A DNA stretch of 64,000 bases from Pseudogymnoascus verrucosus (lineage: Eukaryota): assembly GCA_001662655.1 (NCBI GenBank), contig KV460221.1; one strand, written 5' to 3'. Shown piece by piece: positions 38,502 through 64,000 of this stretch. Made by a program: the position numbers and the translations under genes. Below the pieces are notes generated by a model. The model saw only the letters and a list, made by a program, of their open reading frames with translations, was not told the origin of the DNA and searched no databases. The first letter of the stretch is position 1. Each line of letters begins with the position of its first letter.

Positions 38502-41500
38502 TTAGGCCTCATCGTCCGTATCAGGATAACGTGGAGTCCCCTTAGGACTGGAGAGCCACTCAATGTGTCTCAGACGTCTGCGGACCTCTCTGTCCTTGAG
38601 ATCCTTCTTGGTCATCTTCTTCTTCTTGCGGGCACGGAAAGTCATATCTCCCGTATCCTCGGCGCCGCTGTTGGCGGTGCTGGGGGCGGCGCTGGAGACG
38701 ACGCTGCTTGCCATCGAGGCGACGGTGCTGGGGATTCCGCTGCCGGGGCGGGAATCCTCGAAGCGGTCTGCGGAGACGGCGAGGTGACCCTTGTGGGTGA
38801 CGCGTCCATCAGCGACGTACCACTGCTCCGGGCAAAGCGCGCCAACAAACTCCTCGTTATGGGAGATCATGACGACACCACCCTTGTAGTCGCGGATAGC
38901 CACAGCGAGACCACCGAGGGAGTCGCGGTCCAAGAAATTGGTGGGCTCGTCGAGGACGAGGAGATGGGGGTTATTCCACATGGCGCCTGCGAGGACGACC
39001 TTAACCTTTTGGCCACCGGAGAGGCCGGAGATCTCGTTGTGGTTTGCGATTTCGGGGTCGAGACCCAGGTCTTCGAAGTGCTTGGAGATGACTTTGGGGG
39101 AGAGCTCGCGGAAGCCGAGACCTTCGCGGGAGGCTTCGTGGTCGTCGAATTCTTGGACGAGCTTGCTGAAGCCGCGGTCGACGAGGGTTTCGCGGGAGAT
39201 TTGGGTGTTGTCCTTGGGGAGCATGAACTTCCATTTACTGGGTCATTGTTAGCATTTTATTATCTCGATTTGGGGTGAATTTGGCTTACACTTCGTATTG
39301 GAAGGTCTTCTTCCACTTCTGACGACCCATAATGGACTCGATCATGCGTCCTCCGCGTCCGTCACCGAGATCAATCTCAACCTTCATCTGCTCCTTGTCG
39401 GCCTCAGAGAGGATACGAGTCTGCTTCATGTGGACCTCACGATCATCACCGTTGGCATAACGCCACTGGAGGTACTGGTTGGGGGTCTTCTCGAGATGCA
39501 TCTCCACGTGCTCAAGGGCGTGCTGCTTGATGTAACCAATACGCAAGTTGGGGTGCTTCTCAACACGGCCAGTGGTTGGGATGGTCTCGCCAGTCAGGAG
39601 CTTGATGAGAGTGGACTTTCCGGCACCGTTGCCACCGATGATGGCTGTGCGGGAGGAGAGGGACAGGGAGCAGGAGACGTCGTGGAGGGACGGCTTGTTG
39701 CTTCCGGGGTAGGTGTAGGAGCAGTTGGTCATGCGGAGGATGGAGCGGGTGTTGGACTTGACACCGGTCAAGATACCGGGAGGTGGGAACTTGAACTGCG
39801 CGTTCGAGGCGGAGAGGGTGTAGTAACTCTTGGCCTCGGGCTTCTGCTTGACAAATTCGGCCAAGTTGCCCTTGTAGCAGGCGAGCTTCTTTCCGGGCTC
39901 GTAGTGGTAGATATCCGTGCAGACTTCATCGAGGAAGCCGGAGTCGTGAGAAACGATCAGGGAAGTGATCTCGGTGTGGGTCTTGAGGTAATCCTGCAGC
40001 CACTTGACGTTGGCAACATCCAAGTGATTGGTAGGTTCGTCCAGAAGGAGAACATCAGCCTTCATCAACATAGCTCTAGCAAGAGCGAGCTTCATCTTCC
40101 ATCCACCGGACAGCGAGCCGACCTTCTCGGACTGGCGACCCTCGGGGCCGGCAGTGAAGCCGACCTCGGCAAGGACCTCAGAGATACGCTCCATTCCGGC
40201 GGAGGCGATGGCAGGATCCTTTGCGACAAAGTTCAGAATGCTAATATCAGCATCCTCACCCTGGTTGTGCTCGACGAAGCAGGTACGGAGGACATCCTGG
40301 CTGGGGAAACCCTCAAGCTTGCCGTTGGAGATGGCACGCATGAGAGTAGACTTTCCGGCACCGTTACGTCCGCAAAGACCGTATCTGTGGCCCTTGAGGA
40401 GACGGAGGTTGGTGTGGGAGAGCAAGAGCATACCACCGTAGGCAAGGGAGAAATCGGCGTTGACAATCTCAATCTCTCCGTCGTCCTCCTTGACTGGCTT
40501 ACCGTACTTGCGGTGGTCCTCCTCGACGTAGAAGTTCTGGACGGCATCACCAATGGCAGCGGCTGCCTCGGGGGTCTTCAGGACCTGGGGCAGGTATGGG
40601 GTAACTCTGGCAGCGATGCGGGGAGTCTGGCGGTGGTTGGCATCCTCGGCGACCATGGCGCCAATGTATGGGCCAAGGAGCTTGAAGATGGCGCTGGCGT
40701 CGCCAGCAAGACCTCCAGCCTTTGCGATCTCAGCATCAAGAACCTTGGTGACGTCCTCGATGGTGACGCGGGCAATCTCTCCGTGGGATGCTCCGGAGAC
40801 ATCATCACCCATAGCCTTCTTGATGACGTTAAGTGCTCTGGTGGCCATGTCACGGACCTCGGGTAGGGACGCTCTGTCCTGAACGCCCTTAACACCGGGA
40901 AGGAGCTTTGGCAAGAAAGTACGAGCCTCAACCGGGTCGTGGACAAGCTTTGTCAAGTTCTCCACGACAACAACGGTCTGTCTGAGGACCTCTTGTGCGG
41001 TGGTAGGGGTGTTGAGGGAACGCTCGAGGAGAGGGGTGAGGAGCGCCAGGACGGGGGAGGTGACGATGGCGACGAAGGTGGTTTGCGACAGGGCGTGGAT
41101 GGCCTTTTGCAGGGTCTCGGTGGACGGGTTCTGCATGGTCGCAACGAGGAGTGGGATGCGAGGGGCAACATCGTCGTTGGAAAGGAGGGTGGTAAGGGAG
41201 TTCATGGTGTTGATAGCGGCCTTCTCGACCTCAGTCTTCAAGTCGTGCATTCCCTCCTCGACAATTGGGATAAGACCAGCAAGCTTGGATCCCAGAGAGT
41301 CGCGGAGCATATCCTTATCGTTTGCCTCCTCCTTGGTGGTGCCAGCCTCAAGCTTGGCCTTGTCGGCGATGCGCTGGAGGAGCTTGTAGGCACCAACTGT
41401 TCCTTGCCACTTGCCGGTGCGCTTGGAGAGGTAGAGAGAGAGAACTGGGAGGAGTGCAATAACAAGAGCCTCGGAGCTCAGGAGGACAAAGAGAGCGTCA

Positions 41501-41931
41501 AGCGCGTACTGCGCGGCATCTCTCACCACAGCGCCCTTATCGGCGAGGGCGTCGAGAGCGCAGGGGACGAGACCGCCATCTTGTATGAGAAAGACAACCT
41601 CGGTGATTGGCTGCGGGGTAGGGAAACGCTCGAAGAGGGCACCGAGGAGGTTCTGGGCGCTCTCACGCTTCAGTCCGCTCTTCTTGTCCGCTGCGGCCTT
41701 CTTGATCTCGGCAACGATGCCGTAGGCGTGGAGGCCACGGTAGCCGACGGAGTTGAGGAGGATTTGTGTGAGGGCATAGGAAGCGTCGACGGAGGCAGCG
41801 GAGGAGTCGGCAGTGAAGATGGTGCTGAGGAGCGAGGAGATCTCCTCTTGGGTAGGCGCCACGGTGGACGGGACGTCAGATTTGATAAGCATGGTGGGCT
41901 GTGGTCGGGTTGGAGAGACTGGATGCGGCAT
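38502..41931 (-). CDS. NEW1: eEF3-like ABC-F protein, New1/Elf1 type
   Basis: HEAT region, two ABC cassettes (GRNGAGKST, LSGGWKMK, LLDEPTNHLD; GGNGAGKST, LSGGQKVK), chromodomain insert, C-terminus REVRRRLRHIEWLSSPKGTP; one intron ~39238-39291. Confidence 0.88.
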
Positions 41932-42491
41932 TATCTGAGCGCTTCCGGCGCTCTGTGAAATCGGACAACGGGTGTCTCTTGATTATTGAGGATTGTAGAT
42001 CTGTCAGTCGTGCAATAAATCGTAAATTCGTTCGTAATTATCCTGAAAGTGGGCGTCTTGGCCGAAAAAAAAACTCAGAAACGTGGCCGGGCTGGGGCAA
42101 AAAAAGATTTGAGAGTGGAGATTTTCTGACAGAGCAGAGGGGTAAAAAGGTAAGGAAGAAGAGGGCGAGGAGTTCAGTATATATATCTCAGCCGCGAGTG
42201 GCTAGAGAAGGGGTGAAATAAGAGTAGGAGAGAGATATCTCCGAGTCTTATTTTGCTTTCCTGAAGCCGGGTTGAGGGGTAGAGGAAGGAAGAGGTTCAG
42301 ATGAAAATAAGAGGAGAGGAGGGGAAGGGTGGCGGGCGTAATAGCTCGGGTCTGTTTCGATAGCGATTTTTAGATTTTTAGGGCCAGTTAGGCCGTATCA
42401 GTGGTAATCAGGTACGTATCGGGGCCTTATCCACTGTAGCAAAATCTCTGGTTCCTACTTTTTCTGTCACCGCCTTACCAATGGGTTCTAG

Positions 42492-47888: not shown

Positions 47889-48614
47889 ATGCGCCAATCT
47901 ATCGCCCTTGCCATCGCTGCCATTGCAGGCGTCTTCGCCGCACCAGCCAGCTACAGCCATGCACGCGGCAATTCCACCATGCAGGGACAAGGCGACTTCT
48001 TCTGGGGCGGAGCCGTCCAAGAAGGCCCCCAAGGCACCGGCTGGAACTTCGTCCAAGGTAGCGTAGTCGTCCCCAACTTCAGCGGCGGGGACCCGCGGCA
48101 GTCCGCGAACATGTGGGTCGGCATCGACGGCCGATACTGCTCCAGCGCCATCCTGCAGACCGGTCTTGTCGTCTACGGCGATGGGTCCTTCTGGCTCTGG
48201 ACAGAGTGGTGGAAGAATGTGATGCAGGATTATCAGAGTGGGCTTACTTTTGCGCCTGGTGATACGTTGCGCTTCACGGTGCATTCGACGAGCTATACGT
48301 CTGGCACCACGACGGTGGAGAACTTGAGCAATGGGGAGTGGGTCTCGCAGACTTATACGAGCGAGACGGACTATCCGCTCTGTGAGACGGATGCGGAGTG
48401 GATTCTTGAGGACTGGACGCAGAATGGACAGCCGGTGCCGCTTTATAATTGGGGTACTATTAGTATTTTTGATACGGCTGCGAGGAACCCCAATCGTCAG
48501 GTCACTGCTGCTGGCGCTGATATTGTTAATATCAACATCAATGGGTATATTCTTACTGAGAGCAATGTTCAGTCTGATGGTACTGTCAGCGTCACTTACA
48601 TTGGGCCTAACTAG
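47889..48614 (+). CDS. Secreted glutamic peptidase, family G1 (scytalidopepsin/aspergillopepsin-2-like)
   Basis: Signal peptide; WGGAV, MWVGIDG, catalytic Q in AILQTG, catalytic E in AEWILED. Confidence 0.9.
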   Translation: MRQSIALAIAAIAGVFAAPASYSHARGNSTMQGQGDFFWGGAVQEGPQGTGWNFVQGSVVVPNFSGGDPRQSANMWVGIDGRYCSSAILQTGLVVYGDGSFWLWTEWWKNVMQDYQSGLTFAPGDTLRFTVHSTSYTSGTTTVENLSNGEWVSQTYTSETDYPLCETDAEWILEDWTQNGQPVPLYNWGTISIFDTAARNPNRQVTAAGADIVNININGYILTESNVQSDGTVSVTYIGPN

Positions 48615-49099
48615 GATTGGGTATTTCGGGATAAGATAAAGTACGACGGTAGTGGAATATAAGTCTCGGTGTCTTGTTCTCATTTTCCATAATTCACATG
48701 TGAGCCATAAGTCCGAAAGTGCAGAGCGAGCAGCCGCCTGTCAGGTGGATCATCTCTCTGTGGATCTCCGGGTAGGTCCCGCTAGATGATGCCGGTAAAG
48801 GAGAATGGGCTGCATCGCCGCCTGGTATTCGAGAGAACCAATTCAGAGGGTATATAGGGCATATATGGTATATACTCTATTGTACTTTATGGTTCGATAT
48901 CATAATAAACTGTCACATACGACCACACAAGCTTACGTAACTCCTGGGTAGTAGTATCAGTCGCGCCAATAAGCTTAGCGTAGAGTCTAGGTCCCTTGCT
49001 GCCTAAAGCGGGATTTGGGGGAGAAACCAGGTCATCCTACTCCTGCTACCTGAGGATATATTTCCTTCACTAACCATCCAACGAATATCATCATTTACT

Positions 49100-50110
49100 A
49101 TGGCAAGAACAAAACAAACTGCCCGCAGGTCAACAGGTGGCGCTGCCCCTCGGGCACAGCTCGCTGGCAGCTATCAGCGAGGAGCTTATCTCTTCGATTA
49201 CGGAAACCTTCCAGTACAACAACATGATGATGTCTCGGAAGAGGAGCCTATAATTCCTGATATACCAATAGTTTTAAACGCAGCAACGACTTCGGGTGCT
49301 CAAACGGAGGTGTTTTCTACTCCGGACGTTCTTGTGATCATTCTATCTCAGCTTCCGCACTCCTCCTTGCTCAACGCCAAACTGGTTAATAAAACGTGGG
49401 CAAGCCTTTTCGATAACGTGGAAATCCGAGCTTCTTTATTTGAGTGCCCCAGACCTAAAGAATCGGCTCTGTATACGGAAACATATTCGGATCTATTGAT
49501 GGATAAGTTCTTGGCTCCTTGGCCAACCAACGAAGATGAGTATGCAGACAAGCACCTCAGTTGGCAATTGCGACAACTTCTTGTTTGCCAACCACCAGTT
49601 GAAGCTCTCGAGATTGTTCAAGAGGTCAACCAACGTTATGGCGGTGCTTTGGAATTTCGAACGATTATTCCTCGTCCCAACGGTTTGCGGATGGGGTTTC
49701 TTTATGATGCGATTAGACATTGGCATCAAGTGGAAAGAAGCCCTGTCAAGCTACTTTGGAATAGGAAAACTGGTGACCTTGCCGATAGCATGCATTATTA
49801 TCCAGATGGACCTGGTTACAAGACGTTTGGCGACAAGCCTTGCGTAACTATCTGGGGACAGAAAGGTGTAGGATGCGGGCAATACGGTGGTCTTACGTAC
49901 GAGCACTACCATTTTTTGCAGGATAATACGCAAACACAAAAGCCCAGAGTTCGGGTTATAGAAAGCGATGATGAGAAGGTGAAGTTTTCTATGTCGGAGC
50001 CTAAATCCGTAAAGCTTAATATGATGTTACTCCTTGCTTCTGACCTAAAAGGTCGGTTCAATAAATTTCTAGGAGAGTTATTGCCTAAACAGAACCAGCC
50101 TCAGGTCTAG
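49100..50110 (+). CDS. F-box-like protein with an N-terminal histone H3 tail mimic
   Basis: Starts [22 protein letters not shown]; aa ~71-114 [34 protein letters not shown] fit the F-box pattern; no histone fold. Confidence 0.8.
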   Translation: [336 protein letters not shown]

Positions 50111-60255: not shown

Positions 60256-62155
60256 TTAAAACTGCCCCTCGGTATTTCCCTCTCCCATGCTCTTACTGCT
60301 GCTGCTACCACTCTGGATGGCGCCGAGGATACCATCAATGTAGCTCGCCCCGCTCCACTTCTGGTGCGTCAGCACATCAACACCCAACTCCTTCTCCGGG
60401 CGCTGAATCAAATTGACATAAGCCAACATGCCCTCATCCTTGAACTTCCTCGACAGCTCCGTCGTAATGGTAGCCGTGGAGTGGATCCCCGCCAGCGAAA
60501 TCAGCTGCAGCACAAACCCATGCTTCGCAATGTCCCAGATAAACGACTTGAGCGTCTCATCCGTGAACCCGTGCCCGCTCCAGTTAAACGACGGCGACAA
60601 GTTATACACGAGGCCCTTGCCCGGGTGACGCTCGCGGATCTCCCCCGCGAACCGCGCTGCGTCCTTGACGACCGGATCCCCCGTCTCAACCCAGAGCAGA
60701 TCCGCGTACGGCGCGTACTCGATCGCGCGCTTGGTCGCTGCCGTCATCCCGGCGCGGTAGTGGTAGTACCCCTCGCGTGTTCGCGGCACGTCCCACGAGA
60801 AGAAGATGGGCGAGTCGGTGAAGCGCTGCGCGTACTCGTTGCGCTTGGTGACGGAGAGGTCGCGGTTCGCGGCCGTGTGGGCGAGGTAGGCGTCGATGTC
60901 TGATTGGGGCACGCCGCGGGCCTGGAAGGCTTGGACGGCGGCTTCGTCGAAGGAAACGAGCTTGGTGTTCTTGACCCAGTTGGCTTCGAAGTCGTCGATT
61001 TCGGAGCCCTTGGCGCCGGATTGCTCCATGGCTTGGAGGGTTTCGGCGAGGGGCTTGATGGAGGGGTCGGCGACACCGAGGATGAATTCGTGGTCGCGGA
61101 CGTCAATGGCGCTGCTGATGAGCTTGCCGCTCTCGGAGTCGGTGCGCGCGATGACGAGGTTCTCGGAGCCCATGACGTCCCACTGGAAGCGCGCGGCGAC
61201 GAGGCGGTTGATGTGCTCGCCGACGGGGACGAGGACTTTGCCGGCCAAGTGACCGCACTTCTTGCCGCCGTGCATCTGGTCCTCGAAGTGGACGCCTGCG
61301 GCGCCGTTCTCGGCGAAGAGCTTGGCGATCTTGAGGACTGAGGAGAGGCCGCCGTGGCCGGTGTCACCGTCTGCGATGATGGGGCGCAGGAAATCGGTGT
61401 AGGGGGTCTTGGCGCGTTGCTCGGGGGTCAGCTTGCGCCGGGCGTCCCAGTGTTTCCTGTCGTGCATGGATTGTGCCTTCGCGAGGCGCTGGACTTGGTT
61501 CGGGACGGTGTTGTAGGGATAGTCGCCGAAGTCTGGGGAGACTTCGTTGGTGGTGGTGAGGACGGCGGAGCAGGCCCAGCCGGAGACGTAGAGGACTTCT
61601 TGGTTTGGTGCTTGTTGGGTCATTTGGACGGGGTCAATTGCTCCCACTGTAGTTTTGTTAGCATTCTGTTATTCCTGTAGTATTTGTAGGGTGTAGTCTT
61701 TGTAGGGCGTAGTCTTCGTAGGGTGTGTCATGGCAGTACGTACTTGTGTGAATTGGCTCTCCTGCCGCCTCGCGCTCCTTGATGAGGTTGAACAGCTTCC
61801 TCGCCATCACAGAGCTGGGGTATGACTGCAGCTGACTGCCGCGCTTCGAGACGATGTCCGCAGCCGTGTAAGGCCTCTTGATGCCGTCGTATCGCGGGGT
61901 CGCCCACCACGCCTCGACATCCTTGATCTGCTGGTCGTACAGCGCATCTTCTGCCGCGCCGGCCTTCTCGCTCTCGGGCAGCAGCTGGAAGCCGTCGGAA
62001 GGCAGCTGTGCGGATATGGGTGGGTTGGCGGGCTTGAGGGCTGCCATCCTGGGGACGGCGGAGGAGAGAAGGCGGGTGCGGGGTTGTTGGGAGAGGGCGC
62101 TGGTGAGTGTCGCTGGGGCTTTGCGAGGGAGCGTGGAAGCTATCCTGCGGAGCAT
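60256..62155 (-). CDS. ICL2: Mitochondrial 2-methylisocitrate lyase
   Basis: Arg/Ser-rich presequence [30 protein letters not shown] catalytic motif, [16 protein letters not shown]; divergent from a methylcitrate synthase-type gene. Confidence 0.88.
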
Positions 62156-62910: not shown

Positions 62911-64000
62911 ATGGCCATGAACGCAAGAACCACGACGAGGGCCTTCAGGGCTCTACGCGTAAGTCTACACCCTCAATGACCTCAATTACCTCAATTCCAC
63001 CTACCTGATCAATTCCTAACACTCCCCAGCCCTCCACCCTCCGCCCAATCGTCATCAATGCCACCCGCAGCTACGCCAGCTCCTCGGAGCCCAGCCTGAA
63101 GGACACCATGAAGGCCGTCATCCCCGCCAAGCGCGAGCTCCTCAAGAAAGTCAAGGCCCACAGCGACAAGGTCATCGGCGAGGTCAAGATCGAGAACACC
63201 CTCGGCGGCATGCGCGGTCTCAAAGCCATGGTCTGGGAAGGCTCCGTCCTCGACGCAAACGAGGGCATCCGCTTCCACGGCCGCACAATCAAGGAGTGCC
63301 AAGCTGAGCTCCCCAAGGGAACTTCCGGCACCGAGATGCTCCCCGAGGCCATGTTCTGGCTCCTCCTCACCGGCCAAGTCCCAACCGTCGGACAAACCCG
63401 CCAGTTCTCCCGCGAGCTCGCAGAGCAGGGCCAGCTCCCTGACTTCGTCAACTCCCTCCTCGACTCCCTACCAAAGGACCTGCACCCAATGACACAGTTC
63501 GCCATCGCCGTGTCAGCACTGAACCACACCTCCTCCTTCGCCAAGGCCTACGAGGCCGGCATCAACAAGGCCGACTACTGGGAGCCTACCTTCGACGACT
63601 CCATCTCCCTCCTCGCCAAGCTGCCCACCATCGCAGCCAAGATCTACCAGAACGCGTATAACGGCGGCGGTGCCCTGCCCGCTGAGATCGACACCGCGCA
63701 GGATTGGTCGTACAACTTCGCTGCCATGCTGGGACGTGGTGGCGAGAAGCACGAGGATTTCCAGGATCTTCTGCGTTTGTACCTTGCTCTGCACGGTGAC
63801 CACGAGGGTGGTAACGTCTCGGCGCATGCTACCCACTTGGTTGGCTCCGCGCTGAGCGACCCCTTCCTTTCTTACTCCGCTGGACTCCAGGGTCTCGCTG
63901 GTCCTCTTCACGGGTTCGTCCTCCTCCCTCCCCCCTCTTTCCACCCCACCCCCACCTCCTCAACATTTTATTTCATACCCTTGACGCACCCCCACTAACA
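62911..64000 (+). CDS. mcsA: Mitochondrial 2-methylcitrate synthase (partial, runs off the window)
   Basis: Presequence; GGMRGLKAMVWEGSVLDANEGIRF, LHPMTQF, HGDHEGGNVSAH, GLAGPLHG; adjacent to methylisocitrate lyase. Confidence 0.85.

Follow-up and report, generated by a model that had tools for sequence, protein, structure and literature searches.

Why does a fungal F-box protein begin with the N-terminus of histone H3? The question is raised by a gene in a 64,000 nt stretch of Pseudogymnoascus verrucosus DNA (contig KV460221.1 of assembly GCA_001662655.1; this whole stretch is referred to below as the window). A complete single-exon coding sequence (CDS) on the plus strand (49100..50110; 336 codons plus stop, an uninterrupted open reading frame) specifies a protein made up of a copy of the H3 tail, a linker and an F-box, with an unrelated domain at the C-terminus. 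Comparison with relatives indicates that the copied peptide is held by purifying selection, and we lean towards a model in which the protein would be an SCF-type substrate receptor that uses its H3 N-terminus as a docking hook for a factor that binds H3 tails.

Protein residues 2-22 (49103..49165, plus strand) correspond to H3 residues 1-21, and 18 of the 21 are identical. A preliminary description of the locus, made from the letters alone, had given this same value, and the PDB alignments show it to be exact, the only differences from H3 in the printed alignments being K9R, K14A and K18A (H3 numbering is used for the tail). A search of the complete set of PDB chains with residues 1-40 (phmmer, E ≤ 10) returned 136 distinct sequences; the 60 matches listed are H3 chains or H3 peptides, one of them labelled Cse4, and the best E value of 8.5e-7, taken with the 18/21 identity, excludes a chance match. 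The similarity to H3 ends at residue 22-23, with PDB matches spanning query residues 1-27 only. The protein had also been described as having no histone fold, and this agrees with Pfam, which at E ≤ 10 gives F-box families and not PF00125, and with the modelled body, which consists of the F-box and an alpha/beta domain. Since the tail agrees with H3 at its first eight positions, its N-terminus should be processed in the same way, and removal of the initiator Met is expected, with Ala next as in H3. The equivalent of K4 is the sole lysine within residues 1-93.

The F-box itself occupies residues 75-109 (49322..49426, plus strand), where PF00646 scores 28.1 bits (cut-off 20.5), so that the F-box-like segment previously proposed for residues ~71-114 now has a Pfam match above threshold. 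A second F-box family, PF12937, reaches 22.0 bits, under its cut-off of 24.3, and Pfam at E ≤ 10 detects nothing besides these two in the window protein. In an AlphaFold2 model built from a 39-sequence alignment (mean predicted local distance difference test score, pLDDT, 81; predicted template modelling score, pTM, 0.76), the F-box forms helices at 75-83, 87-96 and 98-105 with pLDDT of 81-89, and L85 and P86 are invariant in the alignment. The Pfam F-box is also above the gathering threshold in two proteins (P0073 and P0135) of a second, distant clade introduced below.

On either side of the F-box the model differs in confidence. Residues 1-30, comprising the tail and the start of the linker, have pLDDT of about 56 and are without secondary structure, residues 31-40 reach 73 and include a two-residue strand, and residues 41-60 fall to about 49. 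The linker as a whole (residues 23-66; 49166..49297, plus strand) is of low confidence and fast-evolving, with a semi-conserved Y-x-Y-G at residues about 30-35 and a short acidic patch. It had been called an acidic linker, which is true of the short DDVSEEE patch here but does not extend to the segment as a lasting feature, this being the fastest-evolving part of the protein (pN/pS 0.69) and only ~20 residues long in the distant clade. The C-terminal alpha/beta domain (residues about 116-327; 49445..50080, plus strand) is modelled at pLDDT of about 90 and carries the family motifs WRQLL-x-CQPP and GLRMGFLYD. Foldseek found no match for it in the PDB at E ≤ 0.001, VIA-align against 48,161 chains reached a Z of 3.1 at most, with no chain at Z ≥ 5, and the ESM Atlas returned F-box clusters only, with scores ≤0.79. 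The weak VIA-align rows are mostly Nudix-like, and no family is assigned from them. The domain is presumed to be substrate-binding. The overall architecture of H3 tail, linker, F-box and unrelated C-terminal domain is confirmed by Pfam, the PDB search and the model together.

Translation from the ATG at 49100 is supported by its surroundings. The nearest in-frame stop on the 5' side ends at 49006, there is no in-frame ATG between 49006 and 49100, and in the context tttactATGG the -3 base is A and the +4 base is G. Codon 134, beyond the F-box, is the next ATG in this frame, so that only the first ATG gives an F-box protein; a start downstream of the tail, named in the preliminary description among the outcomes that would refute it, would lose the F-box as well. 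In 10 related metagenome loci (7 distinct sequences), a single continuous frame runs from ATG-Ala-Arg through the F-box to the C-terminal domain, and none of the 10 has an upstream in-frame ATG. The ~70 bases immediately 5' of the ATG (49030..49099, plus strand), likewise free of in-frame ATG, are partly conserved when 7 related loci are aligned, clearly in L002, L003, L004 and L006 and little in L001, L007 and L009, and they could be a conserved leader or promoter element. In the four leader-sharing loci the coding synonymous divergence is 0.3-0.6.

The product matches the NCBI hypothetical protein V499_01265 (P0002) of Pseudogymnoascus sp. VKM F-103 (Leotiomycetes, Thelebolales) over its full length, with identity reported as 100%. 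Inspection by eye shows a single residue difference at about residue 316 (window ~50042-50047), ASDLKGRF here and ASDPKGRF there, which may be a strain or assembly difference. Four sequencing runs compared with the window yielded short contigs only, none spanning the start. One of these, a 176-base contig (run X3, record 5), aligns to window 49099-49140 with 6 mismatches in 42 tail-coding bases and, read by eye, goes on as genuine H3 (K-A-P-R-K-Q-L-A-T); the contig presumably comes from an authentic H3 gene or transcript in another organism, and it illustrates how the mimic can attract H3 reads. No second copy and no H3 gene was found in the window by tblastn.

The fusion is carried by many relatives. 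A whole-protein search gave 59 close relatives (clade A), of which 28 have a strict H3 start, four a near-intact tail (P0051, P0054, P0058 and P0060) and three a decayed tail (P0005, P0043 and P0049), while six have at least 55 residues before the F-box yet no tail. For the other 18, which are fragments or have fewer than 55 residues ahead of the F-box, the presence of a tail is undecidable. The tail is thus carried by at least 32 of the 59. One of the 18, P0032, is a truncated gene call, since the metagenome locus L006 holds the full frame with the tail, and the same is true of P0063, found in the representative search described next, for which L009 has the full frame. Named carriers in clade A include the Leotiomycetes Pseudogymnoascus, Venustampulla, Bisporella, Stipitochalara, Oidiodendron, Cadophora and Glarea, and, in the Hypocreales, Aphanocladium and Lecanicillium.

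A search of representative sequences retrieved 76 proteins at E ≤ 1e-3, among them one distant tailed member (P0073), and a search with this protein led to clade B, which comprises members of the Xylariales (Astrocystis, Xylaria, Pestalotiopsis and Neoarthrinium) together with Periconia, a Pleosporalean Dothideomycete. The 18 members of clade B show about 28-30% identity to clade A; 14 have the H3 start, two have decayed tails and two are short models. The tail fusion is a family trait that spans three classes of Pezizomycotina. Whether orthologues keep the tail or freely degrade it was a question posed at the outset, and in both clades it is kept. Most of the members listed for the wider family, from ascomycetes and basidiomycetes, are ~200-330 residues long and start directly at the F-box, and in two loci (L011 and L012) the lack of any N-terminal extension is evident in the DNA itself, where a stop lies six codons ahead of the Met. 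In L001 (71% identity), the tail has decayed (R2G, K4G, K9E and S10L) and the remainder of the gene is intact. This locus represents a natural loss-of-tail allele and a possible comparison.

The history of the tail was approached with a tree of 79 family members from which the columns before the F-box had been removed. It recovers clade A (31 rows; Shimodaira-Hasegawa-like approximate likelihood-ratio test, SH-aLRT, 100) and clade B (16 rows, 99), and tail-less proteins separate the two through weakly supported branches only. A tree joining clades A and B is better by 17.35 log-likelihood units (p-value of the approximately unbiased test, p-AU, 0.771), so that one ancient gain of the tail followed by several losses would be compatible with the data, which also leave room for two gains. 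The obvious source of the tail is the 5' end of an H3 gene.

Selection on the different parts of the protein was compared by the Nei-Gojobori method, pooling the 28 pairs formed by 8 distinct CDS (the window gene, L001, L002, L003, L004, L006, L007 and L009), with the near-identical L005, L008 and L010 left out. The proportions of synonymous and nonsynonymous differences (pS and pN) are 0.48 and 0.17 in the tail, 0.60 and 0.41 in the linker, 0.51 and 0.11 in the F-box, and 0.65 and 0.22 in the C-terminal domain. The pooled tail value includes the decayed L001, for which pN exceeds pS in comparison with the window (0.27 and 0.12). Between the window and L009 the tail has pS 0.70 and pN 0.07, and between L004 and L009, pS 0.76 and pN 0.02. 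The peptide has been held despite divergence at synonymous sites, which indicates purifying selection on the tail peptide and argues against a recent capture or conversion by H3 genes. Across the three classes of Pezizomycotina, the tail is conserved more highly than any other segment of the protein (the pooled pN of the 8 CDS being 0.17 for the tail and 0.11 for the F-box).

The residues that have been held are not a random sample of the H3 tail. Counts were made on distinct tails chosen by a pattern that partly forces positions 1-8 and leaves positions 9-22 free, decayed tails being excluded. Among the 27 distinct tails of clade A, those kept are S10 (27), T11 (26), G13 (26), A15 (26), P16 (25), R17 (26) and L20 (25), and those variable are K9 (16), G12 (18), K14 (6), K18 (3) and Q19 (14); position 4 is Lys in 23 and Arg in 4. 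The 13 distinct tails of clade B all have residues 1-8, and S10, T11 and P16 are each present in 12, while K9 (8/13), K14 (1/13) and K18 (2/13) vary and there is little likeness past residue 17. By these counts the common core is H3 residues 1-13, centred on K4, with clade A also holding 15-17 and 20. Because K9, K14 and K18 vary freely, the point of the mimic would not seem to be acetylation or K9 methylation. A lysine desert protecting against auto-ubiquitination was considered as a family trait and rejected, as lysine makes up 5.6% of the N-terminal region and 4.8% of the body in clade A, and 7.0% and 2.9% in clade B; depletion of lysine from the N-terminal region is seen in individual proteins only, the window protein among them.

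How might such a protein work? In the model to which we lean, removal of the initiator Met would expose a free A1-R2-T3-K4 end, as in H3, held on a flexible linker of ~50 residues before the F-box. One or more of the cell's own H3 N-terminus binders would then engage the tail as unacetylated H3, the candidates being a demethylase of the LSD1 type, a PHD finger, a WD40 protein resembling RbAp48/Hat2 or WDR5, Set1/COMPASS, or Haspin/Bir1. The bound factor would thereby be tethered to the SCF ligase, and the outcome might be either that the factor is ubiquitinated or that the ligase is placed or regulated where the factor acts, with the C-terminal domain recognising a ligand. Met removal, assembly with Skp1/Cul1, binding by the tail and the outcome of binding are all steps that we infer. 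The same holds for the idea put forward in the preliminary description, that the tail serves as bait to recruit readers or writers of H3K4 to an SCF ligase or couples the F-box protein to histone-modifying enzymes, which remains an inference.

The extent of the conserved tail bears on the kind of binder. H3 residues 1-8 or so are enough for a PHD finger or a WDR5-type pocket by itself, and LSD1 needs a long H3 peptide of about 21 residues. The sequences suggest that the clade-A tail is kept beyond the need of a PHD finger or WDR5-type pocket alone, and its conservation through 15-20 suggests a reader with a long cleft, or several readers. If the tail does bind what H3 binds, the protein would connect the histone-code machinery physically and directly to SCF-dependent ubiquitination, and it would raise a testable question, namely which H3 binders the cell lets engage off chromatin and what follows when it does. 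The variation seen among natural tails can also be regarded as a mutational scan of an H3 tail freed from the constraints of the nucleosome, in which the surroundings of K4 are held and K9, K14 and K18 are free.

Several observations weigh against the docking-hook model. The tail has decayed in L001, P0005, P0043, P0049, P0133 and P0134, and six relatives with a long N-terminus are tail-less, so that the tail is dispensable in some backgrounds. Arg in place of K4 in 4 of the 27 clade-A tails means that methylation of K4 is not universally required, and the pattern by which tails were chosen for counting contributes in part to the apparent constancy of positions 1-8. Furthermore, the part of a protein that precedes an F-box serves regulation more often than substrate binding, and for this reason degradation of the bound factor is no better supported than localisation or regulation of the ligase.

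The stronger version of the model, that the protein is a natural degrader with a histone bait, in which the SCF ligase captures and ubiquitinates readers, writers and erasers of the H3K4 region (e.g. of LSD1 type, or with PHD or WD40 domains), is viewed by us as a doubtful proposition. If it were true, Pezizomycotina could titrate chromatin factors not bound to nucleosomes, and the kept non-lysine residues, together with free K9, K14 and K18, would make a permanently 'unacetylated' bait.

Of similar standing, and so also rather unlikely, is a regulatory switch. Here histone-modifying enzymes would mark the tail, by methylation of K4 or phosphorylation of T3, S10 or T11, and in this way control the stability, localisation or activity of the F-box protein; the ligase would receive information on chromatin or cell-cycle state and no binder would be degraded. 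Regions before F-boxes are commonly regulatory, as already mentioned, which suits such a role. So does the near-invariance in clade A of T3, S10 (27/27) and T11 (26/27), as does the position of the K4 equivalent as the only lysine in residues 1-93 of the window protein, and peptides of the human H3TM proteins, a set of histone-tail mimics compared below, are described as methylated at K4 by H3K4 methyltransferases in vitro (PMC8166343). Lysine marks would not be universally needed, however, given the Arg at K4 in 4/27 clade-A tails and the free replacement of K9, and the switch overlaps the docking-hook model in any case, since a modifying enzyme must also bind the tail.

Nuclear import offers another role for a basic, terminal peptide: the tail could act as the H3 nuclear localisation signal (NLS), with histone karyopherins carrying the F-box protein into the nucleus. 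H3 residues 1-28 are reported to be an NLS for Kap123, but the Kap123-H3 structure orders only residues 12-17 and 21-26, and K14 and K23 are key, K14A or K23A weakening the affinity (PMC5677370). A signal of this type has K14 flanked by small residues and K23 seven or more residues further on; in the window protein, position 14 is Ala and there is no equivalent of K23, and K14 occurs in only 6/27 clade-A and 1/13 clade-B tails. Moreover, the best-kept residues, 1-11, are the part that Kap123 does not hold, and import as the reason for the tail seems improbable.

We consider it just as improbable that the tail is an intramolecular pseudosubstrate, that is, that the C-terminal domain binds H3-like N-termini and the protein's own tail folds back to auto-inhibit or gate it. 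Pseudosubstrate control is a common design, the pLDDT of the tail, about 56, exceeds the values normally seen at free disordered termini, and the segment 31-40, with its two-residue strand, reaches 73. On the other hand, most of the wider-family members listed are tail-less and nothing ties their C-terminal domain to histones, nor does the domain have a known reader fold. Finally, the tail can hardly be a functionless relic, a captured 5' piece of H3 (e.g. a first exon) that is similar through recent origin or gene conversion, for although an H3 5' exon is an obvious source and several lineages show decay of the tail, fused genes are found in three classes of Pezizomycotina, the first eight tail residues do not differ between clades whose bodies share 28-30% identity, pS in the tail (0.48, and up to 0.76 in distant pairs) is like that of the F-box (0.51) with pN low, and the retention of non-lysine residues with K9, K14 and K18 left free is unlike conversion by H3 genes.

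H3-like tails were also seen on other proteins. A protein search restricted to residues 1-40 and aimed at other non-histone carriers gave 5 candidates only and is not a census of them. Three proteins of 217-248 residues (P0124, P0125 and P0126) form an unrelated, unnamed family with no Pfam domain and no F-box, and begin with an H3-like tail that has K9R, the same change as in the window protein; the H3 N-terminus may thus occur as a portable module on several non-histone proteins. In four others (P0085, P0105, P0111 and P0078), which lack any Pfam domain, the H3 tail is present as two to four tandem copies. The start of P0111 looks like a signal peptide, and P0078, from the nematode Cooperia oncophora and annotated as hypothetical, could be an H3 array that was assembled wrongly.

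No conserved gene neighbourhood was found when the neighbours in the window were compared with those at L009. Within the window, the neighbours include genes for a secreted peptidase A4 (47889-48614, plus strand), an EF3/New1-like ABC ATPase (39286-41982, minus strand), an isocitrate-lyase-family enzyme (60256-61668, minus strand), adjoining that for a citrate-synthase-family enzyme (63009-63998, plus strand), and a DUF1275 protein, while L009 has a dynamin-family neighbour. There is no chromatin-related gene among the peptidase A4, ABC, isocitrate-lyase-family and citrate-synthase-family neighbours.

The protein can be set beside several known systems. It resembles canonical H3 over residues 1-21, including the Ala that follows the initiator Met, and differs in lacking the histone fold, in showing no likeness past residue 22 and in the replacement of K9, K14 and K18. 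Its tail-less kin, such as those of Cadophora malorum (KAG4411645.1; P0128) and Mycena crocata (P0075), have the same F-box and C-terminal domain, with the motifs ASWRRML-x-x-QPP and GLRMG-x-LYD, and start at the F-box. To our knowledge, histone-tail mimics are otherwise short motifs (4-6 residues), found mostly in viruses and animal transcription factors. Influenza NS1, for example, carries an ARSK histone-tail mimic that is presumed to engage host chromatin factors. Viral mimics of this kind are pathogen proteins aimed at the host, whereas the gene described here is a cellular fungal gene, vertically inherited, with the mimic at the true N-terminus.

The closest parallels are found in animals. 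Human H3TM proteins are non-histone proteins with the N-terminal motif iM-Z-R-X-K, in which Z allows removal of the Met, and are reported to bind PHD and Tudor domains and NuRD in vitro, Met removal being a precondition for binding by PHD fingers that read H3K4 (PMC8166343, Chen et al. 2021). Like them, the window protein has a non-histone N-terminus that imitates the start of H3 after Met removal, and its M-A-R-T-K fits the motif. Theirs is a motif of 4 residues, whereas 18 of 21 H3 residues are present here (13 or more in most relatives), and the carrier is a fungal F-box protein in which the tail is a family trait; among the 48 H3TMs, no E3-ligase subunit was noted in sections 12 and 17 of that paper (PMC8166343). 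The SNAG domain of Snail, Gfi1 and Insm1 is described as an N-terminal 'molecular hook' that occupies the H3-binding cleft of LSD1 (PMC5066116), which is the same hook logic as in the model proposed for the window protein. The SNAG likeness to H3 is looser (P2, R3, S4, F5, R8 and K9) and belongs to animal zinc-finger repressors for which LSD1 binding has been shown (PMC5066116), whereas for the fungal protein the parallel is an analogy drawn from sequence. By that analogy, a long-cleft reader could explain the conservation at 15-20 in clade A, as for a SNAG-type LSD1 hook.

In the full-text literature no paper linking an F-box protein with a copy of the H3 tail was found, though subscription journals and supplements could hold one. 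Compared with these systems, what is new here is a copy of 13-21 residues of H3 that is placed at the true N-terminus of a ubiquitin-ligase subunit and is maintained by purifying selection in one family, across three classes of filamentous fungi.

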